In this document: piece by piece, positions 1-44,314 of the stretch
Layout: the number at the start of each line of letters is the position of its first letter
How positions within the stretch are numbered: the first letter of the stretch is position 1
NCBI GenBank assembly: GCA_028110365.1
Contig: JAOGVT010000002.1
Coordinates: forward strand, 19,180 to 83,179
Direction: 5' to 3'
From: Flavobacteriales bacterium
GTDB taxonomy: Bacteria > Bacteroidota > Bacteroidia > Flavobacteriales > UBA7430
DNA length: 64,000 bases
Program-made: the position numbers and the translations under genes
Notes under the pieces: generated by a model
Seen by the model: only the letters and a program-made list of their open reading frames with translations
The model's database searches: none
Told to the model about the DNA's origin: nothing

Positions 1-837
1 GCCCTCATTCCCAATATCCACACGATTCGATTTCTCTTCTACCTTTTGTGTTATGAAGTAAGTTCCATTGTAGAGCCCATTGATGTAAACTTCAGCAAAC
101 TCTCCTAGAGGTGTCCAATTTAAGGTGGAGGCATAGCCCATTTCTAAGGCAATGGCGTTGCGAAGCATTGTCTTATCGGAATGCTCAGCCAAGAAGAGCC
201 ACTTTTTATCGTTTGGCATTCCTAAAAACTCAGCTTTATCATCCAATTTCATTTGATAAGGTTTTTTTGGATGTGTTACCCATGTGGAGTTCCCTCTACC
301 TCTAATTTTCATAGAAAGAGAATCAAGACCAGAGAGTAAAGAATCACCCTTTACGCTAAAGCCGCTCTCAACATTAACAGTACCCAATACATAAACATCT
401 GTGGAATTGATTAATTCTTGGTTTTCGGTATTGATGTACACAACAGGTAAATCAGTACTTACGGTACTTATTTGTTCACATACACTCCCATTACATACTT
501 CATTATAAGCACATGAATCGCACGGTAAAGCAACGAAACAAGGTGTTCCTCCGAAATTACTGCAGTCAGTTGGAGTAAACCATTCGTACCATGGAGAGTA
601 GGCCTCGGTATACATACAACCGTCGTAAGGGGCATCATTACAAGAGAAATAAGTACAGCGCGTATTACCCCACTCATCTTCTTCCTGAACAGTTGCCAGT
701 GGATTGTAGTTTATGGCATTCTGATCTAAACAACCCGAAATCATAGTTTCACCTTCATTAACCATCATAGAAGGTAATGCTAAGGTAAAGCCGTTCACTA
801 AAAAAAACAGTATTAAAGTATATTTAAGCTGTATCAT
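1..837 (-). CDS. CotH kinase family protein, secreted (N-terminal 279 codons; the 3' end lies beyond the left window edge)
   Basis: The minus-strand frame is open from the ATG at 837 to position 1 with no stop, which is why it is absent from the ORF track. My translation starts with a signal-like MIQLKYTLILFFLVNGFTLA. A Cys-rich stretch follows (GCLDQNAINYNPLATVQEEDEWGNTRCTYFSC...). Then comes MKIRGRGNSTWVTHPKKPYQMKLDDKAEFLGMPNDKKWLFLAEHSDKTMLRNAIALEMG, which matches the conserved N-terminal block of CotH as I remember it. Confidence 0.65.
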   Translation of the reverse strand, partial: MIQLKYTLILFFLVNGFTLALPSMMVNEGETMISGCLDQNAINYNPLATVQEEDEWGNTRCTYFSCNDAPYDGCMYTEAYSPWYEWFTPTDCSNFGGTPCFVALPCDSCAYNEVCNGSVCEQISTVSTDLPVVYINTENQELINSTDVYVLGTVNVESGFSVKGDSLLSGLDSLSMKIRGRGNSTWVTHPKKPYQMKLDDKAEFLGMPNDKKWLFLAEHSDKTMLRNAIALEMGYASTLNWTPLGEFAEVYINGLYNGTYFITQKVEEKSNRVDIGNEG

Positions 838-950: not shown

Positions 951-3900
951 TTACTGAACTCTTTTTTCTACGGTTCCATCGTTATAAACATGAAAAAGAA
1001 CTTTACCCTTACACGATTCACCATCAATTACTACCTGACCAAGTACATTGATCACTTTAACCAAAACTCTTGCGCCAGAAATTAATGGAGCGCTTCCAGC
1101 ATTTGTTACAATACTTGAGGCTACATTAATTTGATTGGTTGCGTAAAATGAAGATCCTTGCATCCAATCAGTTACTTCAACTATACTTTCTTGGTGGTTA
1201 GATACTATTTTAAATGAACTTACTTCGGTTACATCTAGCCCATCTTTTTTGGCTGTTAATGCATCGTCTCCCCAAACCGTTAATACGGTTACAGGACTTG
1301 TGTATTTTACAGACCCTACCCTAGTACCAAAAGAGTCGTAAGCAGTTATTTCTGCACCTTCTTTAGGGAGTGTATCCCAGCAAGCATCAGGCATTACAAT
1401 TACCATATTGTTATCTGTAATTGAGGTTTTTTTGAAGTAAGATGAGCTGTTTTTGGTAATGTCTACAGAAGATATTCGGTACGAGTCTTCGTTAGAAAGG
1501 TAATTTAAAACAGCATCATTATTGATTTTTAATTGATACCCTTGTCCCGGAACGAAATCTCCGATGCCATTAAAGTTAAACTCTGGTAAGTAGGTATTAC
1601 CGGCGTAATCTTTTGCAATTATTAAATTACCAGAAGCACTTATGTCTGCTAGAACGGCAGAAGCGTCTGCAGGTTCAAGCCTGAGGTATCCAATCAGATT
1701 CCAACCAGCATCTAGGGCAATTGGATTTAATTCAGGAGTCACATAAACGCCTTCTAAAGTAATATTAAAGGCGTTGTACGTCTTGATATAATAACCTTGC
1801 TCTGACTGTAAATCTCCAATATTATTAAAATTAAATTCTGGCAGATAAGTATCACCTGTATTATTTTTTACAATAATTACATCGGCACTAAATGGATTAA
1901 AAATATCCATGAGATCGGTTGGATTGGATTGGATATAACTTGAAAATAGAGACCAACCAGAAGGCAATTCAATTAATTGATTGGTTATTTGCTGAGGGTA
2001 CTCACAAGAGTTGTCATCTTGAGTAGCGGTAGGATTGAAGTTTAGAGCAGTTGTGTCTGTACAACCCAAAATTTCTACGATTGTAAAATCTATACAAACT
2101 TCTAATGTGGCTTGCAAACCAGAACTTAAAGTACCAGAAATGATTTCATTATTTTGTGCATCACTTATAGTGACAACTGCACCATTCCAACCATCGCCAT
2201 ACGAATCAATCATTGTAAATGTATGACAGCCAGAAGCCAAACATATTTGAGAGAAACCAACGGTTCCAGAATATTCATTAACCGACCAAGTGACTTCACT
2301 TGGGAATTCTCCCTGTGAAAGTTGAACAAACACAATATTAGATGAAGAACAATTTATAGCCTCTTGACATGTTCCGTTGTCTGAAACCGCGTCTGGATTA
2401 AAGTTAATAGCTAAAGAATCGGTACATCCAGACACTGGATAATTACAGCTATTATTTGATGCATTTGCATTGCTATCGTAATTGAGTGCTAAAGAGTCGG
2501 TGCAGCCGAATATAGGACCACATTCTCCCGAGTAATTAAGCGAATAAAAGCCGGTCTGATTTCCATCGCCAGAAATAACTGTGTTTTGATTTGCATCTAT
2601 AAGATCCCATGTGATTTCGTTAGCCCATTGGCCTCCAACTGTAAACACATTACAACCGTCGTTTAAACAAAAAGAAGCACTCGCTTGCGAAAGAGAACCT
2701 AAAAATAAATACGACAATACATCACCATTACTTTGAGAGATACTGAGCTCATTTGTATGTTCGCCGTAAGGCCAAGAATCAGTCATCATAAGAACATAAG
2801 GGGTCCCAAACTCACATTCAATTGGAACGATGCAAGAGCCATCATTTGCATTTGCATTTGCCTCATAATTAAAGGCCAATGGATTCGTACAGCCAGCGAT
2901 ACAAGAATCTAAAGTATTTAAAGCAAAATTATAAATGCCCGCATTATTCTCATTTATAGATTCATAAAACAAAACTTCATGAGCTGTATTGGTTATCTGT
3001 ACATCAACATCAAACCAGTTATCGGTTTGAATTCCATTTTCATCAAATGTATTGATGTTAAAAGCATGACAGCCGTCTTGTAAACAAACCGGAGAGGCTC
3101 CGGCCTCTCCGTAAAACCCACTCATAGACCAGGCTACATCGTCAATATAATCTCCTGTAATTTCGACTTGCAAGCGAGTCAATCCTTCACATTCTACTTT
3201 ACTACAAGAACCGTCGTCAGTATTCGCTTCTGGAGAAAAATTAAGCACAAGAGAGTCGGTACAACCTAAAATAGGGTAAATGCAACTTCCGTCTTCAGCT
3301 GTAGCAAGAATAATGTAATTAAGAGCTAATGAATCGGTACATCCAGAAGTAAAAGAGCAAGAGTCTTGATTTAATGAAAAAGTCAAAGAACCTACATTTG
3401 TATTCTCCAAAGTACCTAAGCCGAGTAACTGACCACCACTGGCAAGGATTGTAACTTCTGCCCCGCCCCAACCAAGTTGAGAAGAATCAAGCCAAGAAGG
3501 AGCTTGAGATGTATCGCTATACATATTGTAAATATAGCATCCATCGGCCAAACAAAATTGACCTTGTTGAAGATCAAATGGGTAAGAATCTCCTTCAATT
3601 CCATTCATTTCCCATGAAATTAGGTAATTGTAATCTCCACCAGTAAATTGCATAAATGCAGTGGTAGAGTCTCCACAATCTAGTATTGGCAAGTGGCAAA
3701 AGCCGTCGTCTTGATTGGCTAATACATTGTAATTAAATGCAATAGGATTTGTACAACCGTACACAAAATCGCAATCAGAAGCAACATCAACTTCAATTGT
3801 TCCATTAAAGCCATCGTCTAAGGTAGCGTAGAGCAATTGTTCGCCATCCACAGTCGTTATAGTTGCAGTTACGTCTCCTAACCAACCAGGTCCGGTAAAA

Positions 3901-5513
3901 GTGGACATCGTAAAGGTGTGACAGCCTGGCTGAACACAAATTAACTTTTCTTCTCCTGCATTTCCTTCAAACCCTTCAAACTCCCATGAAATAGACTGTG
4001 TAAGATATTCCGTGTAAGCCGCATTTACGTTTACTGATAACAGCGTGGCTCCAATACAATCGGTGTCATAAAAACAAGACCCGTCGCTAAGAACAGCTAA
4101 ACTATCAAAATTATATGCAGAAACATCTGTACAACCCTGAATTGGATAAATACAAGAGGCGTCGTAAGAGTTTACTAGCGCATCGTAATTAAGAGCCAAT
4201 GTATCGTAGCAGCCATAAATTGGAGCACATTCGGAATTAACATTAATAAGTAAGCTACCACCTTGGCCTTGATCAAGATACATTTGAGCTAAAATTGAAT
4301 CTTCTTGACTTATCGTGTAATTGTAACCCAGCCAAGGACCAGCTCCGTCTTTAATGATATAAAAAGTGTGACATCCCTCTTCTAAACAAACGTCATAGGA
4401 ACCTCTAATCCCTTCGTAATCTCCTAATTGCCATTGCGCAGGGGAAGCAGAAACAACATCTTCTACTTCTACGTGAATCTTTTCACCAGACAAACATTCA
4501 CCGTAACAATCGAATCCAAATAAAGGGGCAGGTTCGCAAGCACCACATTCATTCGTAGTGTAACAAAATCCATGATCAAATAATGCTTCAGCGTCAAAAT
4601 TACATGCTGTTTCGTCCATACATCCATAGTCAGATGTTACTTCTGCATTGTGAAAAATCCATTCTAAATAAAAAGATACCGTAGTATATCCCATCGGATA
4701 CTGAGGCATACCAGGGGTGTATCCGCCAGAGGTAACACCAACCAAAAGCCAATCTGTACTGTCGGCATTAGGCACGACTAATGGCCCTCCTGAATCTCCA
4801 GAAGCTGCAGATAAACCCCCATTTTCTAAATCTCCCGCATAAATAGTGGTACCATCGTATAACTCAAGCTCTAAGCCCAAAAGACAACCGTATTCTCCAG
4901 CAAACCCATTTGGATCTGTTGCAGCTCCACAAGCTACTTCATTAGAAACGATTGGCACTTCAATCATCTGTAATTGAGTTGCTTCTATGGTATCATTTAA
5001 ATAAGCAGAAGTCGAAACTCCCCAACCAGTGGATGTAGCTAGTACTCCAGGATCTTGAAGTCCGTTTAAAACATCTGAAGCTGAGATTAGACTAATAGGA
5101 GCTATATTTTCAGAAAAGTTAAACGATCCTTCAATTTGAATTAAAGCAATGTCGTTGTGTAGCCACTGATCGTCGTAATCTGGATGCGAAATAATTTGAA
5201 CCACATCATAAGATTCACCTGAATAAGACCAATTATCTGAGGATCCAGCATTTATGGTATAGGTACTAGCATCACCTGCTCCATCAACACAATGTGCGGC
5301 AGTTAAAACCCATGAATCTCCAATGATTGAACCGCCACACATGCTCCCAAAATCTGGCCCCTCGTAGGCAACAGCTACTTGCCATGGGTAGGAACTTATC
5401 TCTACATCTTCCCCACCCACAATTCTACTTTGTGCAACAGAATAAAAAGTTGATAGAAAAATAAAATAGCTAAATGATTGAATTACTAAATTAATCGGGA
5501 GGAGATTTTTCAT
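951..5513 (-). CDS. Giant secreted S1A (trypsin-fold) serine protease, paralogue B, with a Cys-rich module array and a T9SS-CTD-like C-terminus
   Basis: 1520-aa ORF with a signal peptide (...FYSVAQSR). The S1A motifs are IVGG (aa 31), WVLTAAHC (His74), HNDIAL (Asp121) and GDSGGP (Ser241, nt 4791-4793). It has 10 copies of the motif GC[TY][DN]xxAxN[YF]...D[GN]SC. The tail is conserved with the upstream paralogue and ends ...VLVKVINVLGQVV...VLFHVYNDGTVEKRVQ. Confidence 0.9.
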   Translation of the reverse strand: MKNLLPINLVIQSFSYFIFLSTFYSVAQSRIVGGEDVEISSYPWQVAVAYEGPDFGSMCGGSIIGDSWVLTAAHCVDGAGDASTYTINAGSSDNWSYSGESYDVVQIISHPDYDDQWLHNDIALIQIEGSFNFSENIAPISLISASDVLNGLQDPGVLATSTGWGVSTSAYLNDTIEATQLQMIEVPIVSNEVACGAATDPNGFAGEYGCLLGLELELYDGTTIYAGDLENGGLSAASGDSGGPLVVPNADSTDWLLVGVTSGGYTPGMPQYPMGYTTVSFYLEWIFHNAEVTSDYGCMDETACNFDAEALFDHGFCYTTNECGACEPAPLFGFDCYGECLSGEKIHVEVEDVVSASPAQWQLGDYEGIRGSYDVCLEEGCHTFYIIKDGAGPWLGYNYTISQEDSILAQMYLDQGQGGSLLINVNSECAPIYGCYDTLALNYDALVNSYDASCIYPIQGCTDVSAYNFDSLAVLSDGSCFYDTDCIGATLLSVNVNAAYTEYLTQSISWEFEGFEGNAGEEKLICVQPGCHTFTMSTFTGPGWLGDVTATITTVDGEQLLYATLDDGFNGTIEVDVASDCDFVYGCTNPIAFNYNVLANQDDGFCHLPILDCGDSTTAFMQFTGGDYNYLISWEMNGIEGDSYPFDLQQGQFCLADGCYIYNMYSDTSQAPSWLDSSQLGWGGAEVTILASGGQLLGLGTLENTNVGSLTFSLNQDSCSFTSGCTDSLALNYIILATAEDGSCIYPILGCTDSLVLNFSPEANTDDGSCSKVECEGLTRLQVEITGDYIDDVAWSMSGFYGEAGASPVCLQDGCHAFNINTFDENGIQTDNWFDVDVQITNTAHEVLFYESINENNAGIYNFALNTLDSCIAGCTNPLAFNYEANANANDGSCIVPIECEFGTPYVLMMTDSWPYGEHTNELSISQSNGDVLSYLFLGSLSQASASFCLNDGCNVFTVGGQWANEITWDLIDANQNTVISGDGNQTGFYSLNYSGECGPIFGCTDSLALNYDSNANASNNSCNYPVSGCTDSLAINFNPDAVSDNGTCQEAINCSSSNIVFVQLSQGEFPSEVTWSVNEYSGTVGFSQICLASGCHTFTMIDSYGDGWNGAVVTISDAQNNEIISGTLSSGLQATLEVCIDFTIVEILGCTDTTALNFNPTATQDDNSCEYPQQITNQLIELPSGWSLFSSYIQSNPTDLMDIFNPFSADVIIVKNNTGDTYLPEFNFNNIGDLQSEQGYYIKTYNAFNITLEGVYVTPELNPIALDAGWNLIGYLRLEPADASAVLADISASGNLIIAKDYAGNTYLPEFNFNGIGDFVPGQGYQLKINNDAVLNYLSNEDSYRISSVDITKNSSSYFKKTSITDNNMVIVMPDACWDTLPKEGAEITAYDSFGTRVGSVKYTSPVTVLTVWGDDALTAKKDGLDVTEVSSFKIVSNHQESIVEVTDWMQGSSFYATNQINVASSIVTNAGSAPLISGARVLVKVINVLGQVVIDGESCKGKVLFHVYNDGTVEKRVQ
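1995..4628 (-). repeat. In-frame module array of protease B: 10 two-Cys ~24-aa motifs alternating with degenerate W-rich ~45-aa units
   Basis: I counted the motifs in the translation, from YGCMDETACNFDAEALFDHGFC to LGCTDTTALNFNPTATQDDNSCEYP. Only the last intervening unit keeps the canonical DSYGDGWNG. Confidence 0.7.
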
Positions 5514-5534
5514 GTACTAATTTTAAATTTGTAG

Positions 5535-5542
5535 CAAATATA
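5535..5542 (-). promoter_or_regulatory. Bacteroidota-type -7 promoter box (TATATTTG on the minus strand) for protease B
   Basis: Plus-strand caaatata is TATATTTG in reverse complement and fits the TAnnTTTG consensus. It lies 22 nt upstream of the ATG at 5513 and downstream of the inter-paralogue hairpin. Confidence 0.4.
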
Positions 5543-5559
5543 CAAAACATAAATACCAT

Positions 5560-5594
5560 AAAAAAAGAGGCTCCATCGCTGAAAGCCTCTTTTT
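5560..5594 (-). terminator. Rho-independent terminator between the two giant protease genes
   Basis: The stem agaggct(5566-5572)/agcctct(5584-5590) has an 11-nt loop. It is flanked by an A-run on the left and a T-run on the right, so it can act in both directions. It sits 22 nt after the stop codon of protease A. Confidence 0.55.
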
Positions 5595-5615
5595 ATAATA
5601 CTATTATATGGTAAC

Positions 5616-8600
5616 TTATTTAACCATTTTTTCTACGGTTCCGTCGTTGTAAACATTAAAGAGAACTTCTCCAGTAAAAGAGTCATCAACAACTACTTCC
5701 TGACCAAGTACATTGATTACTTTAACCAAAACTCTTCCGCTTGAAATTAAAGCAACGCTTGAGGTATTTGTTACAATACTTGAAGCTACATTAATTTCAT
5801 TGGTTGTATAAGTTGAAGAACCTTCAACCCATTTGGTAACTTCAAATGTATTTGTTTGATTGTTAGACCATAGTTTAAATGAACTTACTTCAGTTGCATT
5901 TAGTCCATCTTTAGAGCTTGTTAAAGCATCGTCTCCCCAAACTGTTAATACGGTTACAGGACTGGTGTATTTAGCAGAACCTACAAGGGTACCATAAGCA
6001 TCGAAAGCAGCTATTTCAGCGCCATCTTTAGGAAGTACATCCCAACTTGCGTCGTCAATTACAACAGTCATATTGTTATCCGTACGCAGGGCTCTTTCAA
6101 AGTGAGATGAATAATTATTAGTTACACCTATTGAAGAAACTCGGTAAGACTCTTCGTTAGAAAGATAATTTAAAACATCATCGTTAGTTACTTTTAATTG
6201 ATATCCTTGCCCAGAAACAAAGTCTCCAATTCCGTTAAAGTTAAACTCAGGTAAATAAGCGTTACCCGCAAAGTCTTTTGCAATTACTAAATTACCCGAA
6301 GAATTGATGTCAGAGAGAACAGCAGAAGCATCTGCAGGCTCAAGTCTAATGTATCCAATCATATTCCAACCAGCAGTTAAGATTGTAGGGTTTTCCTCTG
6401 GAGCAAGATATTCCCCTTCTGCTGTAATGGTAATTTCATTACGCAATTTGATTTGGTATCCCTGACCTAATTCAACATCTCCAATTCCATTAAAACCATA
6501 TTCGGGAAGGTAAGCAGCGCCAGCATTGTTTTTACAAATTATAATCTGGTCAAAAATAGAGCTTAATAAAGTTACCAAGTCCATACTTTCAAAAGTCAAA
6601 TAGGTAGAGAATATGGACCATCCAAATGGCATATCCATAGTTTGATCGGAAACAGAAGAAATCGAAGTTAAAGTGGAAAGTGCAGAGATCCCGTTGGTAA
6701 TATAGTTCCCTTGGTTAGACATCATCGCCTCATATTCTGCATTGGCCATATAAGCTAATCCTTCTGATGTATCCCAAACCATCCAAACAAATGCTTCGTT
6801 TGATGAAAAGCCATCTATTTCATCTGTAGTTGTATCATCACCTTGAGCGGCAATAAGATTTGTGGAACCAGTCCAAGTTGCCATACCACCACACTGTAAA
6901 TCTCCATTTTCATCAGAATAGAACACACCAAGTACATCTCCGATCTCAATTTCTACATCCCCTAAATCAATCTGAGCAGCACCATCAATAACTAATGTGT
7001 GGTTAGATCCAGTTACCATTACTTCCCAAGGAATATCAACTCCAGGATTATCGCCATCACATGATGTTGTAAAATCAAATGTAGCTTCTTGTCCTTGTTC
7101 CATTCCTCCTGAGGCTAGTTCACATGAAAGGTCATCAGATAAAATTGAGAATGTTCCTCCATTCCATCCGTCACCATAGGAATCCGATAAAATAATTGAA
7201 TAAGAAGTATTTGATTCTAAACAAAGTTCAACGTCAACAACAGAATTGTCAGAGTACTGACCATCTGTGTACAACATCAAGCCACTTTCATCGGTAACTG
7301 ACCATGAGTGCTCGTCACCAAAAGAAGCATTGTTTACGACAAGTAAAGCAGGGTATCCCTCACAATTCACAGGGTACTCACAAGAACCATCATCTTGTGT
7401 AGCTGCTAAATTGTAATTCAAGGCTGAAATATCTGTACATCCAAGTATTGGATCAACAATAATTTCACATTCACCAGCGTATACTGATTCAACTCCAGCA
7501 CAACTTGCATGGCAAGAACTTGAGTAAGTTATCCCATCAAATCCACAAACAGGATCGTAAATTTCAGGGCATACACAGCCGTATTCACATGAGCCATCGT
7601 CTATAGTAGCCGTATTGTCAAAGTTTAAAGCTGAAGGGTCTGTACAGCCATAAACGTATCCACATTCGGCATTTAAAGAGAATAACATGTCCCCAGAATA
7701 CCCAGCTTGTAATGTACCCGTTAATAATTCCTCTCCTGTAGATGTCGTAATCGTTACTATTGAACCATTCCAACCGTCTCCATAAGAATCTATCATAATA
7801 AATGTATGACATCCATCCTCTAAGCAATATTGTGTTGCCCCAACTTCACCTGGGAAATCGTTTAACTGCCAGGAAACTTCTTGACTATAAAATCCAGCCG
7901 TAACATCAATTACAACAAGTGTTAATCCTTCACAATCAATAGGATATTCACATGAAGCATCATCTTGAACTGCATCTGGGTTATAATTTAAAGCAAGAGA
8001 ATCTGTACAACCAACAACAGGATAAGTACATGAATTATCGTCTGCTGTAGCTGCTGGGTTAAAGTTTAAGGCTAAAGAATCGGTACAACCGTATATCAAA
8101 CCACATTCACCTTCAAAATTTAAGGCTAGTGAAGATTCGTATGGAGCATTTCCAGACAACACAACGGCTCCGTCTTGATTAACAAGATCCCAAGAAACTT
8201 CACTTTGCCATGAACCACCATCTACAGTAATTACATAACACCCATCGTTTAAACAGAAGCTAGCAACTCCTTCGCTTTCCGAACCTAATAAGGTAGCAGA
8301 AGCGATCTCTTGTCCGTTTGAAGATGCAGTAAATGCATTTCCATTCCAACCATCACCATAAGAATCGTACATCATTAAAGTTAAAGAGTTTGCAGTGTCA
8401 CAATCTTGAGGGTAAACACAAGAACCATCGTCTCCAACAGCAAGCTCGTTGTAATTGAAGGCTAATGAATCCATACAACCTGAAACTGGATAAGTACAAG
8501 AACCATCATTTGAGGTTGCTTCGACATCAAAGTTTAAGGCTAATGTATCGGTACACCCTAAAACAGGCCCACATTGTTCATCTGTATTTAAGCCAAAGCT

Positions 8601-10403
8601 AAGCGTTCCTTCAGAAACGTAACCTTCGAGCGTTCCAGACAGTAAAACGTCTCCATAAGAATCAGTAATTGTAACTACAGCAGAATTCCATCCATCTCCG
8701 TAAGAATCATACATAGTAAAAGTTTGACAACCGTCTTCTAAACAGGCTTGAGTAGATTCAGCACTTCCAGAAAAACCACCGATACTCCATGTAATTTCTG
8801 AATCCCATGAACCACCACCTACTTGAATTGAAACAGAAGTTAAACCAGAACAGTCAATCGGATACTCACAAGAGCCATCGTCTTCTACAGCTGCAATATT
8901 ATAATTTAAAGCTAGCGTATCCATACATCCAGCAACTGGGTATAGGCAGGAGTAGTTGTCAGCCGTAGCTTCAGCATTAAAGTTCAAGGCAGTCGAATCT
9001 GTACATCCAAATACAGGGCCACAACCTTCGCCTCCAAAAGCACCTTCAAAAGGAGCACCACCAGAAATCAACACAACACCATTCACGTCAGTAATCTCCC
9101 ATGACACTTCTAGTGGCCATGAGCCAGCATCACAAGTTACATCGACACAACCTGCAGAGGAATCGTAACAAACGACTCCAGAACCAGAACTTCCTGATGC
9201 AATAGTTAATGAAACTCCATTTACAATTAAAGCAGCTCCATTCCAACCATCACCGTAAGAATCAGACATTGTTACGATAAGCGTTTCACCAGTCGTACAG
9301 TTTCCAGCACAATCGTAACCTGGAGCTGGGCCATCACCGCCACACTCACCACATTCATCAAATGCAGCACAAGTACCATCATCAAAAATCATTGATGAAT
9401 CAAAATTACACGCATTTTCATCAGTACAACCACTACACGAACTATTGTCTCCTCCACACTCACCACAATCGTCAAGTTCAGCACATGCACCATTATCGTA
9501 AATCGCTTCCGAATCGTAATTACAAGCAGTAATATCCATACATCCGTATTCACTATTCACATCAGCATTGTCATTAATCCAATCCAAAACATGAGAAACT
9601 TTAGACCATACACCAGGGTAAAGTACGTCTGCACAACCATAACCCCAACTAGTAGCACCAATTAGTAACCATCTAGAATTATCAGAACTTCGAACTACAA
9701 GAGGACCACCAGAATCACCCTGACAAGCATCTTCTCCACCATTTATAAGGTCACCCGCACATATCATTGAGGCATCAAGAGAAGTGCAAGGGTATTGTCC
9801 TGAATTACCATTCTCGTCATTTGCAGAACCACAAGCAACATCATTCTCTACAATAGGAGCTTCTACCATCTGTAAAACAGAAGCTAAACCACCACCAGAA
9901 GAGGTTGTACCCCAGCCAGTAATAACGGACATAACTCCACCGTCTTGAGCACCGGCAGCAATTTCATTTTCATCTATTAGATCTATTTTCTGAATAAATG
10001 CACTATACTCAAACTCACCATTGATTTCTACCAAAGCAAAGTCGTATGAATTTCCAGAATAATCTGGATGTACTATAATTTGATTTACAGAATAAGACTC
10101 TCCACCTGATGCAAATGATGCTGTTGCACCACAACGAATATACAAACCACTAGGGCTGTCTCCGTTTACACAGTGAGCTGCGGTTAAAACCCAAGAATCC
10201 CCAATAATAGAACCTCCACAAAACCCGCTTCCATTAGGACTAGAAGTTAAGGCTACTTGCCATGGATAATCTTTGATTTCAACATCTACACCTCCCACAA
10301 CTTTTTGCTGAGCAGAGACATTAAAAGATAAAATAAGAGTGAGCACAAAAGTTAAATTCCGGATGATTTGGAAACAATTAATTGGGGGAGTAAATATTGT
10401 CAT
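5616..10403 (-). CDS. Giant secreted S1A (trypsin-type) serine protease, paralogue A, with a Cys-rich module array, an embedded Kazal-type domain and a T9SS-CTD-like C-terminus
   Basis: 1595-aa ORF with a signal peptide (...SFNVSAQQK). The S1A motifs are VVGG (aa 35), WVLTAAHC (His77), DFALVEI (Asp121) and DACQGDSGGP (Ser231, nt 9711-9713; Asp at the position-189 equivalent). It has 10 two-Cys motifs and 5 canonical DSYGDGWN[GS] units. A Kazal-like segment spans aa 943-979. The C-terminus reads ...VLVKVINVLGQEVVV...VLFNVYNDGTVEKMVK. Confidence 0.9.
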   Translation of the reverse strand: MTIFTPPINCFQIIRNLTFVLTLILSFNVSAQQKVVGGVDVEIKDYPWQVALTSSPNGSGFCGGSIIGDSWVLTAAHCVNGDSPSGLYIRCGATASFASGGESYSVNQIIVHPDYSGNSYDFALVEINGEFEYSAFIQKIDLIDENEIAAGAQDGGVMSVITGWGTTSSGGGLASVLQMVEAPIVENDVACGSANDENGNSGQYPCTSLDASMICAGDLINGGEDACQGDSGGPLVVRSSDNSRWLLIGATSWGYGCADVLYPGVWSKVSHVLDWINDNADVNSEYGCMDITACNYDSEAIYDNGACAELDDCGECGGDNSSCSGCTDENACNFDSSMIFDDGTCAAFDECGECGGDGPAPGYDCAGNCTTGETLIVTMSDSYGDGWNGAALIVNGVSLTIASGSSGSGVVCYDSSAGCVDVTCDAGSWPLEVSWEITDVNGVVLISGGAPFEGAFGGEGCGPVFGCTDSTALNFNAEATADNYSCLYPVAGCMDTLALNYNIAAVEDDGSCEYPIDCSGLTSVSIQVGGGSWDSEITWSIGGFSGSAESTQACLEDGCQTFTMYDSYGDGWNSAVVTITDSYGDVLLSGTLEGYVSEGTLSFGLNTDEQCGPVLGCTDTLALNFDVEATSNDGSCTYPVSGCMDSLAFNYNELAVGDDGSCVYPQDCDTANSLTLMMYDSYGDGWNGNAFTASSNGQEIASATLLGSESEGVASFCLNDGCYVITVDGGSWQSEVSWDLVNQDGAVVLSGNAPYESSLALNFEGECGLIYGCTDSLALNFNPAATADDNSCTYPVVGCTDSLALNYNPDAVQDDASCEYPIDCEGLTLVVIDVTAGFYSQEVSWQLNDFPGEVGATQYCLEDGCHTFIMIDSYGDGWNGSIVTITTSTGEELLTGTLQAGYSGDMLFSLNAECGYVYGCTDPSALNFDNTATIDDGSCEYGCVCPEIYDPVCGFDGITYSSSCHASCAGVESVYAGECEIIVDPILGCTDISALNYNLAATQDDGSCEYPVNCEGYPALLVVNNASFGDEHSWSVTDESGLMLYTDGQYSDNSVVDVELCLESNTSYSIILSDSYGDGWNGGTFSILSDDLSCELASGGMEQGQEATFDFTTSCDGDNPGVDIPWEVMVTGSNHTLVIDGAAQIDLGDVEIEIGDVLGVFYSDENGDLQCGGMATWTGSTNLIAAQGDDTTTDEIDGFSSNEAFVWMVWDTSEGLAYMANAEYEAMMSNQGNYITNGISALSTLTSISSVSDQTMDMPFGWSIFSTYLTFESMDLVTLLSSIFDQIIICKNNAGAAYLPEYGFNGIGDVELGQGYQIKLRNEITITAEGEYLAPEENPTILTAGWNMIGYIRLEPADASAVLSDINSSGNLVIAKDFAGNAYLPEFNFNGIGDFVSGQGYQLKVTNDDVLNYLSNEESYRVSSIGVTNNYSSHFERALRTDNNMTVVIDDASWDVLPKDGAEIAAFDAYGTLVGSAKYTSPVTVLTVWGDDALTSSKDGLNATEVSSFKLWSNNQTNTFEVTKWVEGSSTYTTNEINVASSIVTNTSSVALISSGRVLVKVINVLGQEVVVDDSFTGEVLFNVYNDGTVEKMVK
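7059..9548 (-). repeat. In-frame module array of protease A: 10 two-Cys ~24-aa motifs (mostly in doublets) separating five blocks that each pair a DSYGDGWNG-type unit with an SW-x-SEVSW-type unit
   Basis: Read from the translation. Example motifs are FGCTDSTALNFNAEATADNYSCLYP and AGCMDTLALNYNIAAVEDDGSCEYP. Example units are TMYDSYGDGWNSAVVTITDSYGDVLLSGTL and TVDGGSWQSEVSWDLVNQDGAVVLSGNA. Confidence 0.75.
7467..7577 (-). other. Kazal-type (Kazal_2-like) serine protease inhibitor domain embedded in protease A
   Basis: aa 943-979 read CVCPEIYDPVCGFDGITYSSSCHASCAGVESVYAGEC. This has six Cys and the Y-x-P-V-C-G-x-D-G-x-T-Y core typical of Kazal domains. Confidence 0.75.
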
Positions 10404-16599: not shown

Positions 16600-17568
16600 A
16601 TGAAAAAAATTTACCTTTTTAGCATCGCACTTATAGGTGCCTTTACGATGCAAGCACAAGACTGTTCTAACCTCTTTATTTCTGAGTACGTAGAAGGTTG
16701 GAGTAACAACAAAGCAATCGAATTGTACAACCCAACCAATGAAACCATAGATTTATCAAACTATGCGCTCTCAAGATGGAGTAATGGAGGAACTACGCCA
16801 CAGAGAACTGTACTAGAAGGTGCTGTAGCACCAGGTCAAACTTTTGTAGTTGCCATTGACAAAAGAGATCCAAATGGAGAAGGTTTTGAAGCTCCTTTAT
16901 GGGATGGATGGTACTATTACACAGATAGTGTTTCGGGCTTACCAGACAGTATTTACACTGCAGATGAAGACCTTTTAGGTAAAGTTGATTTGTATATTTG
17001 CCCAAATTATGAAGATGGTACCATGTACTATAACGGTAACGATGCTGTAACTTTAGAAGACCCAAGTGGAAATGTTTTTTACGATATGTTTGGAAAAATC
17101 GGAGAAGATCCAGGTGACGGATGGGGTGATGAAATGGGCTATATTTGGACTCAAAATAAAACGTTAGTTAGAAAACCATCTGTTAAATCTGGTTTTCTTT
17201 ACGACCCAATGCAACCTTATACGTTTGACCCTTCAGTTCAGTGGGATTCACTCCCAGCGAATACATTTGCAGGACTAGGTGAACACACTTGTGATTGTGA
17301 GTCTGTAGTATCTATTAAAGAAATTCAAAATTCTGTTTCAATGTATCCAAATCCGAATTCTTCGGGACAACTTACCATTGATGCTAACATCAATTTAACT
17401 TCTATTGCTATTTATAACATCCTAGGAGAAAAAGTATTTAGCAAAAATTACGACAATTCATCTATTACAGAAACACTAACCTTAGATGCGTCAATTAAAG
17501 GATTGTTCTTTGTTGAAGTTAGACTTCAAAACAAAAAAACCATTCTTAATAAGTTACTTATAAATTAA
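16600..17568 (+). CDS. Lamin tail domain (LTD)-containing secreted protein with a T9SS type A sorting domain
   Basis: 322 aa with a signal peptide (FTMQA|QD). The LTD-like core reads LFISEYVEGWSNNKAIELYNPTNETIDLSNYAL...GNDAVTLEDPSGNVFYDMFG. The C-terminus has YPNPNSSGQLTI...IYNILGEKV...GLFFVEV. Confidence 0.75.
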   Translation: MKKIYLFSIALIGAFTMQAQDCSNLFISEYVEGWSNNKAIELYNPTNETIDLSNYALSRWSNGGTTPQRTVLEGAVAPGQTFVVAIDKRDPNGEGFEAPLWDGWYYYTDSVSGLPDSIYTADEDLLGKVDLYICPNYEDGTMYYNGNDAVTLEDPSGNVFYDMFGKIGEDPGDGWGDEMGYIWTQNKTLVRKPSVKSGFLYDPMQPYTFDPSVQWDSLPANTFAGLGEHTCDCESVVSIKEIQNSVSMYPNPNSSGQLTIDANINLTSIAIYNILGEKVFSKNYDNSSITETLTLDASIKGLFFVEVRLQNKKTILNKLLIN

Positions 17569-20379: not shown

Positions 20380-22530
20380 ATGAAAAAAACAATCTATTTA
20401 TTTGCGCTTTATTGTGGTACTTTATTAGCTCAAAGCCCAAGTTATTATGAAAACCTTCAACAATTAACAGGAGATGCGCTTGAAGATGCACTTCATGAGT
20501 TGATCAAAGATCACAGTGAGTTTTCATACAGTTCGGCAAAGCAAATTCTAAAAGACAGTGACCAAGATCCGAACAATACAGACAATGTAATATTGGTCTA
20601 CAAAGAAACCTCTATTCCTAAAAGTAATTTCGCCAGCAACAATCAATCTGATTACTGGAACAGGGAGCACGTTTGGGCAAAATCGCATGGGAATTTTACC
20701 AACTATGGCGATCTAGGCGCTTACAGTGATGCACACAACCTAAAACCTTGCGATGCAAGTATAAATTCTGCAAGAGGTTACAAAGATTTCGACAATGGAG
20801 GCTCTCAAAATAACGAGGCAACAAATTGTTACGCTACAAATACAACCTGGGAGCCAGGAGACAATGTAAAAGGAGATGTTGCACGAATTATTTTTTACAT
20901 GCATACGCGTTACAGTGGAAATGGAGAGCCGAACTTAAATATCGTTGACTTTACGCCTACCTTCCCGAACTCTCAAATGGGAAAATTATCTACGCTTTTA
21001 GCATGGAACGAGTTAGACCCTGTAGATGCATTTGAAAGAAGAAGAAATGACGTGATTTACGGATGGCAAAACAACAGAAACCCTTTTGTTGATTATCCAG
21101 AATTGGCAAACAGAATATGGGGAGAAGCGCAACCAAACAGTGTTCAATTTGTAGATGTAAACCTAGGAAATGCTGCGCCTAATGAAACCGATACACAAAC
21201 TGTAAATGCAGAAATAATGTACGGAACATCTATTGAATTAGATGTCGTATTGACCTGGGGAACCTCTTGGTACAATTTAGACAATGAAGTTCAAATGACC
21301 AATGTAGATAACTTATGGTCAGCTTCAATACCTACTCAAGTTGCAGGAGCAGATGTTAAATATAAAATAGTTGCACAAGCTGGAAGCTATGAAAATACTT
21401 TTTATGGAAACTATGAAGTAACCCTTAATCCTTTTCAAGGGCAAATCACAAGCATCCAATCCATACAAGGAACAACGAACGACTCACCATTTGCTGGACA
21501 AACAGTATCCACAACAGGAATAGTAACAGGAACTTTTGGGAATAGTTTTTACATTCAAAATGGTGCAGGAATGCGTTCTGGAATATACGTTTATAATTCT
21601 GCCATTTTCCCTGAACTAGGAGACAGTGTAATCGTAACAGGTGAAATAACAGAATACTACGAATTAACTGAATTTGCTTTCCCTGACGATGTCTATATTT
21701 TAACCTCTAATAACCCGATACCAGAACCTATAGAAATAAGTACTTCGGAGTTAGCAAACGAAGATTTGGAAGGTGTGTTGGTTAAGGTATCTGACGTTAC
21801 AGTTACCTACGCTACTTTTAACTTTGATGATTACGGTGCTTGGCGAGTAAATGATGGCTCTGGTGAATGTATTATTCACAACACAGAGGGAGCATTTGAA
21901 TACCCTGCTGTAGTTGGAGAAGAAATTAGCTCAGTTACCGGTATTTGTAGTTTCAATTACGATGAGTGGAAAATTGAACTTCGGATAGAGGATGATGTAC
22001 AAGGTGGTGAAGGTAGTAACGGTCTTAACATTACAAGTGTAGAGGCGATAAACCAATCAACAATTGTGGTCTTATTTTCCAATCCTGTAGGTAGTGAAAG
22101 TGCTGAAAACACAGCTAACTATAGCATCACTAACAATGCAGTAGTTACCAGTGCGGCAAGACACCCATTTCAATCGAACAAAGTTACATTGACGGTGGAG
22201 AATATGAATGCGGGTAATTATACGCTTACTATTGAGAATGTGCAAGATGAAGAGGGTAATGTGGTTAACGAAAATGAAAACCAATTTAATTATTTGTCTG
22301 TTAACGATTCTAAAAATACGCCTCTCACAATATATCCTAACCCATCAAACGGAATCATTAGCATTGATGGATTAGAAAAAGGGGCTACTTTTGAGGTTTG
22401 CAATACACTAGGAAAAGTCATTAGACGATACAACGCTTCGGGATCAGCAGAGCATATCAACTTAAATTTAACCAATGGATTGTATTTTATTAAATACAAA
22501 TCCAACGTCAAACAAATTGTTGTAAATTAA
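20380..22530 (+). CDS. Secreted multidomain endonuclease I family nuclease with a T9SS type A sorting domain
   Basis: 716 aa with a signal peptide (TLLA|QS). The Endonuclease_1-like motifs are WNREHVWAKSHG, DAHNLKPCDASINSARG, GDVARIIFYM and NNRNPFVDYPE. A middle region resembles the OB-like module of ExeM/NucH nucleases (IQGTTNDSPFAGQTVSTTGIVTG...FYIQN...GIYVY...GDSVIVTGEITEYYELTE). The C-terminus has YPNPSNGIISI...GLYFIKY. Confidence 0.85.
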   Translation: MKKTIYLFALYCGTLLAQSPSYYENLQQLTGDALEDALHELIKDHSEFSYSSAKQILKDSDQDPNNTDNVILVYKETSIPKSNFASNNQSDYWNREHVWAKSHGNFTNYGDLGAYSDAHNLKPCDASINSARGYKDFDNGGSQNNEATNCYATNTTWEPGDNVKGDVARIIFYMHTRYSGNGEPNLNIVDFTPTFPNSQMGKLSTLLAWNELDPVDAFERRRNDVIYGWQNNRNPFVDYPELANRIWGEAQPNSVQFVDVNLGNAAPNETDTQTVNAEIMYGTSIELDVVLTWGTSWYNLDNEVQMTNVDNLWSASIPTQVAGADVKYKIVAQAGSYENTFYGNYEVTLNPFQGQITSIQSIQGTTNDSPFAGQTVSTTGIVTGTFGNSFYIQNGAGMRSGIYVYNSAIFPELGDSVIVTGEITEYYELTEFAFPDDVYILTSNNPIPEPIEISTSELANEDLEGVLVKVSDVTVTYATFNFDDYGAWRVNDGSGECIIHNTEGAFEYPAVVGEEISSVTGICSFNYDEWKIELRIEDDVQGGEGSNGLNITSVEAINQSTIVVLFSNPVGSESAENTANYSITNNAVVTSAARHPFQSNKVTLTVENMNAGNYTLTIENVQDEEGNVVNENENQFNYLSVNDSKNTPLTIYPNPSNGIISIDGLEKGATFEVCNTLGKVIRRYNASGSAEHINLNLTNGLYFIKYKSNVKQIVVN

Positions 22531-31783: not shown

Positions 31784-33061
31784 ATGAAAAATCTAAGCAC
31801 AATAATCCTACTTCTCGCCCCTCTACTTTTGGGTGCTCAATCTTGTGACTTACCCCAGTATTATAGCGGGTTGAATACGGGTTCAAACATGTCAATACTT
31901 CTTCATCAAGACTTTATTGCGGGTTTAGATCTTAACGCAAACGCACCCTATATAGTTGCGCTTTCAGAAAGTGGAGTTGTAGTTGGTTCTAAAAGTTTGG
32001 TGGACGAGAATGGGGCTGTTGTCTTTCAAGAAGCTATTGCGGTATGGGGAGATGATACCTCTACACAAGATGTGGTTGATGGAGCCCTATCAGGAGAAAC
32101 AATTGTACTAAAAGTAATAGACGGAGCTGAATTGTTCACCATAGATACCGATCAAATGGAAATTAGCTTTGCAGTTAACGGGTTAATTGTTGTATTAACT
32201 GGAACCATGAATTATGAGTGTACTGGAGTCGTATTGGGTTGTACTGAGTCGATTGCTTGCAACTTTAATTTAGACGCTACAGAAAATGACGGCTCGTGTG
32301 AATATGCAGTTGAATTCTATAACTGCCAAGGAATTTGCAATACAGATACGGATGAAGATGGCGTGTGTGACGAACTAGAAATTGCTGGATGTGTTGAGCC
32401 TATGGCGTGTAACTACAACGCGTTTGCTACCGATACAGTTGAAAACTGTGTGTATCCAGAACAATATCGAAACTGTGAGGGTGCGTGTGTAAGCGATCAA
32501 GATGGAGACGATATATGCGATCAAGAAGAAGTGGAAGGATGTACCAATTATTTTGCTTGTAACTACATAGCCGAGGCTACAAACGATGATGGTTCGTGTA
32601 TCGTAATTAACGCTACTATACAATACGATGCGCAAAATGGACTGCTAAGCTTAGACACAAATATAGACAGCCTTGACATTACCTGGCTTTATTACGATGC
32701 AGTGATCCCTTTTGAGCATAGCGACTCTATTTATGTATTAGAAGATGGCGTTTATGGAGTGTTGGTTTTTGACCCTGAAAATGATTGTGGTACTTCAGAT
32801 ACAATTCATATTAATGTGGTTGACTTGAATCAAATTAGCCAACCTAAAATACGTATTTACCCAAATCCTGCAATTTCTATTTTAAACATTGAATTAAATA
32901 AAGAAAGTGAGCTCGCGATATTTAATTCTAATGGAGCAGAAATGTATCGTACAAAAACACGAGAAACAGCTGTTAACGTAGCTTATTACCCATCGGGAAT
33001 CTACTTTATTAAACTAGTACAAAACAACAATCGAATTGTTTATCCGTGGGTAAAAGAATAA
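31784..33061 (+). CDS. Secreted T9SS cargo protein sharing modules with the giant proteases (VWGDD domain, 3 two-Cys motifs, 2 acidic Cys loops)
   Basis: 425 aa with a signal peptide (LLLGA|QS). The N-domain reads SNMSILL...VVVGSKS...IAVWGDDTSTQDVVDG. The two-Cys motifs are LGCTESIACNFNLDATENDGSCEY, AGCVEPMACNYNAFATDTVENCVYP and EGCTNYFACNYIAEATNDDGSCIV. The C-terminus has IYPNPAISILNI...GIYFIKL. Confidence 0.8.
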   Translation: MKNLSTIILLLAPLLLGAQSCDLPQYYSGLNTGSNMSILLHQDFIAGLDLNANAPYIVALSESGVVVGSKSLVDENGAVVFQEAIAVWGDDTSTQDVVDGALSGETIVLKVIDGAELFTIDTDQMEISFAVNGLIVVLTGTMNYECTGVVLGCTESIACNFNLDATENDGSCEYAVEFYNCQGICNTDTDEDGVCDELEIAGCVEPMACNYNAFATDTVENCVYPEQYRNCEGACVSDQDGDDICDQEEVEGCTNYFACNYIAEATNDDGSCIVINATIQYDAQNGLLSLDTNIDSLDITWLYYDAVIPFEHSDSIYVLEDGVYGVLVFDPENDCGTSDTIHINVVDLNQISQPKIRIYPNPAISILNIELNKESELAIFNSNGAEMYRTKTRETAVNVAYYPSGIYFIKLVQNNNRIVYPWVKE

Positions 33062-43336: not shown

Positions 43337-44314
43337 ATGAAACACCTACTTATTGCACTGCTTACACTTATACTAATCGGCTGTACTTCGGAACCAAAAG
43401 TTAAAAAAGCGAAAAACCCAAAGAAAAAAGTGGAGGCTCCGATTTTTAACCAAGATTCGGCTTACAATTTTATAGCAAGCCAAGTTGCTTTTGGTCCTCG
43501 TGTTCCTAACACTAAGGGGCACATAGCCTGCGGCGATTACCTAATAGAAACACTAAAATCGTATTGCGATACTGTAATTGTTCAAGAAGCGCAACTAACC
43601 GCTTTTGATGGAAATGTATTAAATTCTAAAAATATCATTGCCTCTTTTAAGCCAAAAAGAGCCAAGCGAATTATGCTTTGTGCGCATTGGGATACCCGTC
43701 CTTTTGCAGATCAAGATACAGAAGACACAAATAAAGCGATTGATGGCGCAAATGATGGCGCTTCTGGAGTAGGTGTGCTTTTGGAAATAGCGAGACAATT
43801 TTCGTTAAAAAAACCCAACATTGGAGTAGATATTATTCTATTTGATGCAGAAGATTATGGCCAACCAGCTGTAAGTGATTACCCAAGAATGGAACACTCC
43901 TATTGCTTGGGATCCCAATACTGGGCTACCCACCTACACAAATCGAATTACTTTGCAAAATACGGAATCTTACTCGATATGGTTGGGGGTAAAAACGCGG
44001 TATTTACGCAAGAACTTGCCTCGCTTACCTTTGCGCCAAAGGTGCTTAAAAAGGTGTGGAATACTGCAGCAGAATTGGGCTACGGAAACACTTTTCAATT
44101 CAAAAAAACAAACCTAATCATCGACGACCATTTGTACATCAATAATTTGGCACAAGGAAGGGTTCCCACAATCGATATTATCGAATACAATGAGGTTACC
44201 GAAAGTCACTTTTACGAACATTGGCATACGCACAAAGACAAGTTAGAGAACATTGACAAGAACACGCTCAAAGCAGTGGGTCAAACTGTGCTTCAAGTTG
44301 TTTACAATGAATAA
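43337..44314 (+). CDS. M28-fold lipoprotein, glutaminyl-peptide cyclotransferase-like
   Basis: 325 aa with the lipobox LILIGC. It has FGPRVPNTKGH, LCAHWDTRPFADQD, DGANDGASGVGVLLEIARQF and ILFDAEDYG. The pattern resembles the animal-type glutaminyl cyclases of Bacteroidota. Confidence 0.65.
   Translation: MKHLLIALLTLILIGCTSEPKVKKAKNPKKKVEAPIFNQDSAYNFIASQVAFGPRVPNTKGHIACGDYLIETLKSYCDTVIVQEAQLTAFDGNVLNSKNIIASFKPKRAKRIMLCAHWDTRPFADQDTEDTNKAIDGANDGASGVGVLLEIARQFSLKKPNIGVDIILFDAEDYGQPAVSDYPRMEHSYCLGSQYWATHLHKSNYFAKYGILLDMVGGKNAVFTQELASLTFAPKVLKKVWNTAAELGYGNTFQFKKTNLIIDDHLYINNLAQGRVPTIDIIEYNEVTESHFYEHWHTHKDKLENIDKNTLKAVGQTVLQVVYNE

Follow-up and report, generated by a model that had tools for sequence, protein, structure and literature searches.

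Tandem secreted S1A protease paralogues with divergent S1 pockets and basic pro-tripeptides in a marine Flavobacteriales bacterium: a candidate two-protease activation cascade

The stretch of DNA analysed here, referred to below as the window, comprises 64,000 nucleotides of contig JAOGVT010000002.1 (assembly GCA_028110365.1, positions 19,180 to 83,179) from an uncultured marine Flavobacteriales bacterium. Toward one end it carries two long genes in tandem on the minus strand, both recognised as open reading frames (ORFs) with a match to the Pfam Trypsin model. Gene A (5616..10403) encodes a 1595-residue secreted, multidomain protease of the trypsin type within the chymotrypsin family (S1A). 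Gene B (951..5513), directly downstream on the same strand, encodes a 1520-residue secreted, multidomain S1A protease with a predicted non-basic S1 pocket. Judged from their sequences, the products are paralogous pre-pro-enzymes, each with a signal peptide and a three-residue pro-segment that ends in Lys or Arg. The reading we favour, with a probability of about 0.5, is that A activates itself and then activates B.

The Trypsin model, PF00089, matches both proteins from end to end, over residues 35-276 of A (E value 5e-51) and residues 31-286 of B (E value 4e-44). The catalytic domain of A (residues 35-281; 9561..10301, minus strand), to which the span 9560..10301 singled out in a preliminary description of this DNA corresponds, begins with VVGG, while that of B (residues 31-291; 4641..5423, minus strand) begins with IVGG. 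Both assignments draw on Pfam, sequence alignments, AlphaFold2 models and Foldseek searches, and that of B draws also on the ratio of nonsynonymous to synonymous substitution rates (dN/dS). Chymotrypsin numbering was checked twice, once against kallikrein and tryptase chains of solved structure that HMMER had aligned and once in a MAFFT alignment that included bovine trypsin and chymotrypsin and porcine elastase. On this numbering, the catalytic residues of A are encoded at 10173..10175 (His57), 10041..10043 (Asp102) and 9711..9716 (Asp194 and Ser195), and those of B at 5292..5294, 5151..5153 and 4791..4796, respectively, all on the minus strand. The motifs TAAHC, D(F/I)AL and GDSGGP, which supply the triad and the oxyanion-hole Gly193, occur in A, in B and in every orthologue of each, so that His57, Asp102, Gly193, Asp194 and Ser195 are kept in both paralogues, as is Ser214. 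The zymogen machinery is likewise present in both, namely Asp194 and a VVGG or IVGG sequence immediately after the tripeptide. The motifs, coordinates and residue numbers quoted in the preliminary description agree with ours to the letter.

Identity between the two proteins is 52% across the catalytic domain and 64% in the last 347 residues. AlphaFold2 models of the mature catalytic domains have a mean predicted local distance difference test (pLDDT) score of 96.7 for A and 90.0 for B, and both models align with solved S1A proteases in Foldseek at a query-normalised template modelling score of approximately 0.8 or higher. The best structural matches of A are enteropeptidase, factor XIa, kallikrein and trypsin, and those of B are the S1A proteases kallikrein, factor XIa and the TMPRSS enzymes. 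We take the neighbours of B to reflect ancestry rather than pocket type; comparison of models in this way does not separate trypsin-like from elastase-like enzymes. In HMMER searches, the closest solved sequence relatives of A and B are S1A enzymes of the eukaryotic type, including plasma kallikrein, hepsin, tryptase, crayfish trypsin and the TMPRSS enzymes.

The S1 pockets of the two paralogues differ markedly. By alignment, that of A (9612..9731, minus strand) consists of Asp189, Ala190, Cys191, Gln192, Trp215, Gly216, Cys220 and Gly226, of which Asp189 (residue 225) and Cys191 (residue 227) fall within GGEDACQGDSGGP, and Trp215, Gly216, Cys220 and Gly226 within SWGYGCADVLYPGV. Comparison with kallikrein, crayfish trypsin and bovine trypsin identifies in A every mark of a trypsin-type pocket, that is, Asp189, Gly216, Gly226 and the Cys191-Cys220 pair. 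The pocket is of the canonical trypsin type, with a predicted specificity for Arg and Lys. The corresponding pocket of the window's B (4692..4811, minus strand) aligns as Ser189, Ala190, Ala191, Ser192, Gly215, Gly216, Pro220 and Met226, with Ser189, Ala191 and Ser192 located in GGLSAASGDSGGP and the last four positions in TSGGYTPGMPQYPMGY; Cys182, Cys191, Cys220 and Trp215 are all missing. A second subtype of B, found in the loci L003, L010 and L011, has Ser189, Val190, Asn191, Ser192, Gly215, Val216, Pro220 and Ala226. In this subtype too, Ser189 is constant, and Cys191 and Cys220 are missing throughout.

That A has a classic trypsin pocket and B does not had already been proposed in the preliminary description, and both the HMMER alignments and the MAFFT alignment, which includes bovine trypsin and chymotrypsin, bear this out. 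Its account of B stands as far as the loss of Asp189, Cys191 and Cys220 is concerned, but a plain chymotrypsin-like B does not, given the residues at 216 (Gly or Val) and 226 (Met or Ala) and the additional loss of Trp215 and Cys182, which had escaped notice. A chymotrypsin-type pocket would pair Ser189 with an open Gly216 and Gly226, whereas B has either Met226 or Val216 with Ala226, and Gly in place of Trp215. Each subtype carries a single bulky hydrophobic residue at 216 or 226 (Gly216/Met226 or Val216/Ala226), which narrows the pocket at one position only; porcine elastase, for comparison, aligns with Val216/Thr226. These residues, three positions in all, suggest that the pocket of B is narrowed and uncharged, nearer to that of elastase than to that of chymotrypsin, and B is predicted to prefer, like elastase, aliphatic residues of small or medium size. 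We also considered B as a Glu-specific protease, which would fit the P1 residue of a Kazal-type domain in A (see below), and rejected this assignment because B has neither His213 nor any positive charge in the pocket.

The cysteines of the catalytic domains are at residues 62, 78, 91, 191, 206, 215, 227 and 257 in A and at residues 59, 75, 195 and 210 in B. In A-type catalytic domains, a loop inserted between Cys168 and Cys182 contributes an additional Cys, so that the cysteine count of most orthologues is odd. Of these residues, Cys168 and the Cys of the insert (residues 195 and 210) are retained in the B of the window and Cys182 is lost, and in the other B subtype Cys168 and the Cys of the insert are both gone.

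The joint loss of Asp189 and of the 191-220 disulfide was read in the preliminary description as real divergence and not as sequencing error, and further copies of the gene uphold that reading. The B sequence of the window is found again in two independent metagenome contigs, L008 (100% identity) and L009 (99%), and relatives at 69-73% identity are present in L003, L010, L011 and L012; the losses recur in all six. The five complete copies, from the window, L003, L008, L010 and L011, are intact ORFs of 1520-1551 residues, with those of L009 and L012 being incomplete only in that they run off their contigs. Pairwise dN/dS of the catalytic domain is 0.077-0.123 between B orthologues, the value for the unsaturated pair L003/L011 being 0.077, and 0.03-0.15 between A orthologues. 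The catalytic domain of B is under strong purifying selection. Independent recurrence, intact reading frames and low dN/dS together exclude both sequencing error and pseudogenisation; a decaying pseudogene, which we entertained as a candidate explanation, is ruled out by the five intact ORFs of 1520-1551 residues on independent contigs and by a dN/dS near 0.1.

Selection of this strength bears also on whether B is a conventional protease that has to be activated. It might instead be a paralogue that has weak activity or only binds, or an enzyme whose activity is independent of N-terminal insertion, in either of which cases Arg30 would be a relic. The loss of Trp215, Cys182 and the 191-220 disulfide would suit such a protein, as would the DSYGDGWNG-type motifs downstream of the catalytic domain, most of which are degenerate relative to those of A, and one loop that is modelled at a low pLDDT of 56. 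Nevertheless, the triad, Gly193, Asp194, Ser214 and the I-V/I-G-G terminus are kept in both B subtypes, the catalytic domain evolves at a dN/dS of approximately 0.1, and the tripeptide keeps a basic end even though its middle residue changes. We consider a B of this kind quite improbable and treat it in what follows as a zymogen.

Signal cleavage sites were placed by comparative and contextual evidence. The signal peptide of A (residues 1-31; 10311..10403, minus strand) ends in NVSA, with a predicted signal peptidase I cut before Gln32, and that of B (residues 1-27; 5433..5513, minus strand) ends in YSVA, with a predicted cut before Gln28. Between these cuts and the catalytic domains lie the pro-tripeptides, Gln-Gln-Lys (QQK) in A (residues 32-34; 10302..10310, minus strand) and Gln-Ser-Arg (QSR) in B (residues 28-30; 5424..5432, minus strand), so that the mature proteins are predicted to start at Val35 in A (position 10301; VVGGVDVEIK) and at Ile31 in B (position 5423; IVGGEDVEISSYPWQ). 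In all A- and B-type sequences recovered, more than 20 relatives, the residue at -1 is Ala or Ser and the one at +1 is invariably Gln, which stands exactly three residues ahead of the I/V-V/I-G-G motif; the junctions of B orthologues, for instance, read AHS/Q and AFS/Q. At least 16 A-type sequences have QQK as their tripeptide, the next clade (P0005 and P0006) has QER or QDR, and among B-type sequences the tripeptide is QSR in the window, QTK in L003 and L010, and QSK in L011 and L012. Its second residue varies and its third is basic without exception. A cut directly before Val35 or Ile31 is unlikely because Lys or Arg, which signal peptidase I is not known to accept at -1, would then occupy that position.

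The invariant Gln has a ready context in this phylum. According to the Bacteroidetes Q-rule, signal peptidase I exposes an N-terminal Gln, which a periplasmic glutaminyl cyclase converts to pyroglutamate (PMC5837995, PMC10653852). The same junction, with Ala, Ser or Gly ahead of Gln, occurs in at least six other signal-peptide proteins of the window, three of which have type IX secretion system (T9SS) sorting domains. The window also encodes a glutaminyl cyclase (43337..44314, plus strand), a lipoprotein of the M28 fold that is recognised by Pfam Peptidase_M28 and matches two solved Bacteroidetes glutamine cyclotransferases, 6qro and 6qql, at an E value of 4e-102. This cyclase is of the animal type; Flavobacteriia are reported to carry typically one of the plant type (PMC5837995). 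With the conserved junction of a small residue and Gln, the Q-rule, the other Q-proteins of the window and the cyclase gene all pointing the same way, a three-residue pro-segment in both A and B is well supported. The cleavages NVSA/QQK and YSVA/QSR, and the tripeptide with a basic end in both paralogues, were both anticipated in the preliminary description, and the latter proves to be conserved as Q-x-K/R across A- and B-type sequences. The first Gln of the tripeptide is probably cyclised to pyroglutamate (pGlu), and such a cap would make the tripeptide resistant to aminopeptidases.

An alternative way to remove so short a segment is from its end. A pyroglutamyl peptidase would take pGlu, after which a dipeptidyl peptidase would release Gln-Lys from A or Ser-Arg from B, much as cathepsin C acts on granzymes. 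The very short pro-segments of granule proteases are indeed removed by a dipeptidyl peptidase (PMC7914634), and the window includes a gene for an S46 dipeptidyl peptidase (47265..49622). The exopeptidase route nevertheless requires two enzymes acting in strict order, and it leaves unexplained why the last position should be strictly Lys or Arg. The P1 preference of S46 enzymes also argues against it, those that have been characterised favouring hydrophobic or acidic residues over basic ones. We regard this route as very unlikely indeed, and return to endoproteolytic activation by A.

The mechanism that we envisage for A and B has five steps. Sec would take both proteins out, and signal peptidase I would cut ahead of the invariant Gln, a step that comparison with relatives supports strongly. 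Next, the window's own periplasmic glutaminyl cyclase would cap the tripeptides, giving pGlu-Gln-Lys on A and pGlu-Ser-Arg on B, neither of which aminopeptidases could trim. As long as the tripeptide is in place, the Val or Ile N-terminus should be unable to insert and form its salt bridge to Asp194, and both proteins would remain zymogens. This is established for S1A enzymes, in which an N-terminal extension blocks the Ile16-Asp194 salt bridge and, in vertebrate trypsinogens, acidic propeptides act as a brake on autoactivation (PMC7914634). Molecules of A would then cleave one another in trans after Lys34. Finally, B would be cleaved after Arg30 by a trypsin-type activator, for which the adjacent A is the candidate, and this step is the least certain of the five.

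Trans-autoactivation is the simplest reading for A because its Arg/Lys pocket fits its own activation site and its tripeptide is without an acidic brake. Genomes that have A alone lead to the same expectation, since in these A presumably must activate itself; A is found without B in L001, L002 and L005, with unrelated genes following it where checked. For B, the mismatch between its pocket and Arg30 means that it would cut itself inefficiently and would need a trypsin-type activator. B has the features of such a downstream zymogen, with QSR/IVGG in the window, QTK or QSK at the same junction in its orthologues, Ser189, and no acidic pocket residue in any of them. Animal chymotrypsins and elastases, which trypsin activates, classically combine a basic activation site with a non-trypsin pocket in this way. 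Lys or Arg is present at the activation site in 9 of the 12 homologues recovered that lack Asp189, most of which are animal enzymes. P0013, the one further bacterial relative with Ser189 that was recovered, has a longer pro-segment with Tyr at its end, which fits its own predicted specificity; in contrast, the end of the B pro-segment does not fit the pocket of B. As a separate observation, the homologue P0122 has Asp189 together with a Glu-terminated tripeptide, QAE, and activation-site chemistry thus differs among close relatives such as P0122 and P0013.

B-type genes are rare, and several relatives have only A. No closer relatives of B were found in a set of 5.8 billion proteins, in which its best matches are A-type sequences at 46-49% identity; B-type genes were recovered only by a genome scan (L003) and a scan of metagenome DNA. 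A related gene is located directly upstream of B in all five of the B loci with enough upstream DNA. This gene is A-type in L003, L009 and L012; L008 and L011 contain only its truncated end, a C-terminus of the type that A and B have in common. L010, with too little informative upstream sequence, was left out of the count. The nearest genomic relatives of A are in metagenome-assembled genomes of marine Flavobacteriales and Cryomorphaceae, including UBA6772, at 77-92% identity, and synteny is seen in L002, L004 and L005, which have an ORF the size of a tyrosyl-tRNA synthetase and a LuxE-like ORF. Neighbour joining of the catalytic domains places the B clade as the sister of a group that unites all of A with P0005, P0006, P0010 and P0013; on this evidence the catalytic domain of B is old or fast-evolving. 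The extreme C-termini of the two tandem genes are nearly the same within one genome, as seen in the window and in L011 (3..2951 and 3053..7705), where 43 of the last 45 residues agree, in contrast to an identity of only approximately 50% between the catalytic domains. Such near-identical tails suggest either gene conversion or a tail that is very strongly constrained.

The interval that separates the A stop codon from the B start codon contains a terminator-like hairpin followed by a run of U (5560..5594, minus strand), with a fold of -16 kcal/mol and a z-score of -4.3; none of 200 shuffled sequences folds as well. A and B are therefore probably separate transcription units. A scan for sigma-70 promoters returned 29 sites against 32.4 expected from shuffled sequence, under a model that is not that of Bacteroidota promoters. 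The motif TATATTTG, found 21 nt upstream of the ATG of B, resembles the Bacteroidetes -7 box and is a candidate for such an element.

Several of these observations weigh against a cascade from A to B. A basic residue occupies the activation site in 139 of 181 Asp189 homologues (approximately 77%) and is thus the default of the family, so that the basic residue of B may simply be inherited and its retention, taken alone, is weak evidence. The tripeptide of B is known in just three independent versions, and the prediction of its specificity is based on only three pocket positions. For autoactivation to start, the tripeptide-bearing zymogen of A would have to possess sufficient residual activity. 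The strong hairpin means that co-expression of the two genes is not guaranteed, the tree does not place the catalytic domain of B as a recent offshoot of A, and neither protein has a T9SS domain recognisable by hidden Markov model (HMM).

Much of this would be expected if A and B were independent zymogens that both owed their activation to another endopeptidase cleaving after Lys or Arg, whether the cell's own, environmental or prey-derived, and if their adjacency were no more than the product of tandem duplication. A basic site that is the family default names no particular activator, a hairpin separates the two genes, and the catalytic domain of B belongs in the tree to an old or fast-evolving lineage. 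On the other hand, A is the sole protein with a recognised trypsin-type Asp189 pocket in the 64-kb window, B follows directly on an A-type or related gene wherever there is enough upstream DNA, and the genomes with A alone would still require an activator of A, for which self-activation is the simplest choice. On balance, we think such independence rather unlikely. The comparative data are compatible with self-activation of A and activation of B by A, and the step from the trypsin to the second protease is plausible, though unproven.

Beyond the catalytic domains, the middle regions of A (approximately 5700..9560, minus strand) and B (approximately 2000..4640, minus strand) are made of repeated units. 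One is a Cys-bracketed unit of approximately 24 residues, GC[TM]D..ALN[YF]N...DDGSC.YP, and the other is a module of approximately 90 residues that contains DSYGDGWNG, the copies of which in B are mostly degenerate (TGPGWLG and AGPWLG, for example). Pfam scans returned nothing significant for the GC.D..A.NYN modules, the DSYGDGWNG modules or the 340-residue C-terminal module described below.

A also has a Kazal-type inhibitor-like domain (residues 943-979; 7467..7577, minus strand), which scores above the cut-offs of both PF00050 (27.7-29.6 bits, cut-off 21) and PF07648 (25.5-30.4 bits, cut-off 22.8) and has the six-Cys pattern C-x-C-x7-C-x10-C-x3-C-x10-C. Its reactive loop, CPEIYDPVCG, has Glu at P1 and is nearly the same as the loop of pancreatic secretory trypsin inhibitor, CTKIYDPVCG, with Lys at P1. 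Because the domain is limited to the window's A and the near-identical A of L009, and is missing from other A orthologues, it is a recent insertion. A general role as an autoinhibitor of A or as an inhibitor of B was rejected in view of the Glu at P1 and the restriction of the domain to the lineage of the window.

Both proteins end in a C-terminal module of approximately 340 residues (5619..6650 in A and approximately 954..1985 in B, minus strand) that is 64% identical between them. Among marine Flavobacteriales we found 210 homologues of this module, in which the N-terminal part varies and may be, among others, a thioredoxin, lamin-tail or von Willebrand A domain, and it looks like a widespread, uncharacterised module for anchoring or export. 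The last 50-116 residues of A and B give no match to the T9SS sorting domain models PF18962 and TIGR04183 even at an E value of 10, and P0126, which served as a positive control, matches at 6e-13. With the Pfam and NCBIfam scans of their C-termini negative at this threshold, A and B were not assigned as T9SS cargo. Relatives of the module at approximately 50% identity do end in a bona fide PF18962 domain. In the case of P0308, this domain (residues 395-470) aligns with the last 55 or so residues of A, in which the stretch is shorter and the usual motifs are missing; the close of the module in A and B may be a degenerate T9SS sorting domain.

Elsewhere in the window, the products of 16600..17568, 20380..22530 and 31784..33061 (all plus strand) match PF18962 and have bona fide sorting domains of T9SS type A. 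One of these three proteins has a lamin-tail domain, one has endonuclease I and one is of unknown function, and all have the junction of a small residue and Gln. The S46 dipeptidyl peptidase gene at 47265..49622 is on the minus strand, matches PF10459 at an E value of 6e-233 and encodes an exported peptidase of the chymotrypsin fold. Downstream of B, a partial ORF (1..837, minus strand) that continues beyond the end of the window encodes a secreted protein in which the GC.D..A.NYN Cys motif seen in A and B precedes a CotH kinase domain (PF08757, E value 2.5e-14).

The closest parallel to the A-B pair is the pancreatic cascade, in which trypsin activates chymotrypsinogen and proelastase at Arg15-Ile16. 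In both systems a trypsin-type S1A enzyme stands beside a non-trypsin paralogue that has Arg or Lys ahead of I/V-V-G-G and retains Asp194. A and B differ in being bacterial, in their multidomain architecture of 1500 residues and in having no enteropeptidase-like initiator that we could see. Their pro-segments, too, are distinct, with three residues, a probable pyroglutamate cap and no acidic brake. The type II transmembrane serine proteases (TMPRSS2, TMPRSS11D, matriptase and hepsin), which are among the closest solved relatives, resemble A as multidomain Asp189 enzymes that cut themselves at Arg/IVGG, but they retain a long, disulfide-linked N-terminal stem where A and B have a free tripeptide and accessory domains at the C-terminal side.

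Among bacterial enzymes, the trypsins of Streptomyces griseus and Saccharopolyspora erythraea, the latter being one of the Foldseek matches of A, share with A the Asp189 pocket and very short pro-segments. The native pro-tetrapeptide of the S. griseus enzyme ends in Pro and not in Lys or Arg, and both are single-domain proteins with no known partner paralogue of altered pocket. Pro-peptide engineering and autoactivation of S. griseus trypsin have been reviewed (PMC7155311). An extracellular zymogen cascade that includes a serine protease of the chymotrypsin fold is known from staphylococci, where aureolysin activates SspA/V8, which in turn activates SspB (PMC3454333, PMC5418230). That cascade has been shown by experiment, but it runs through three catalytic classes with long propeptides and includes no trypsin-type enzyme that activates its own paralogue. 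Granule proteases such as granzymes, cathepsin G and chymases have very short, two-residue pro-segments reminiscent of those of A and B, and they lost the Cys191-Cys220 disulfide alongside a change in primary specificity. These are eukaryotic enzymes that are activated by the exopeptidase cathepsin C and not by a tryptic cut (PMC7914634). By analogy, we judge the A-B pair to be a bacterial variant of the classic arrangement of a trypsin followed by chymotrypsinogen or proelastase.

A bolder proposal would be that marine Flavobacteriales have, independently of animals, a minimal extracellular zymogen cascade in which pGlu-x-Lys/Arg confers latency during export, A autoactivates outside the cell with positive feedback, and A is the obligate activator of an elastase-like B. 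We offer it tentatively, as a possibility that the sequences raise and not as the outcome we expect. If true, it would amount to a density- or location-dependent switch for a protein-degrading apparatus of two specificities. Activation of B by A, if it occurs, would be a bacterial case of a trypsin activating a paralogue of different specificity, a logic so far tied to digestion, clotting and immunity in animals. The Bacteroidetes Q-rule, too, would then have a definite role in regulation, the cap leaving an endoproteolytic cut as the only on-switch. The underlying chemistry is that of the textbook, and current understanding would not be overturned. In practical terms, A could serve as a self-activating microbial trypsin. 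A- and B-type proteins are repeatedly recovered from marine metagenomes and so probably help to degrade dissolved and particulate marine protein, and knowledge of their activation and substrates would be useful for interpreting measurements of marine exoenzymes.

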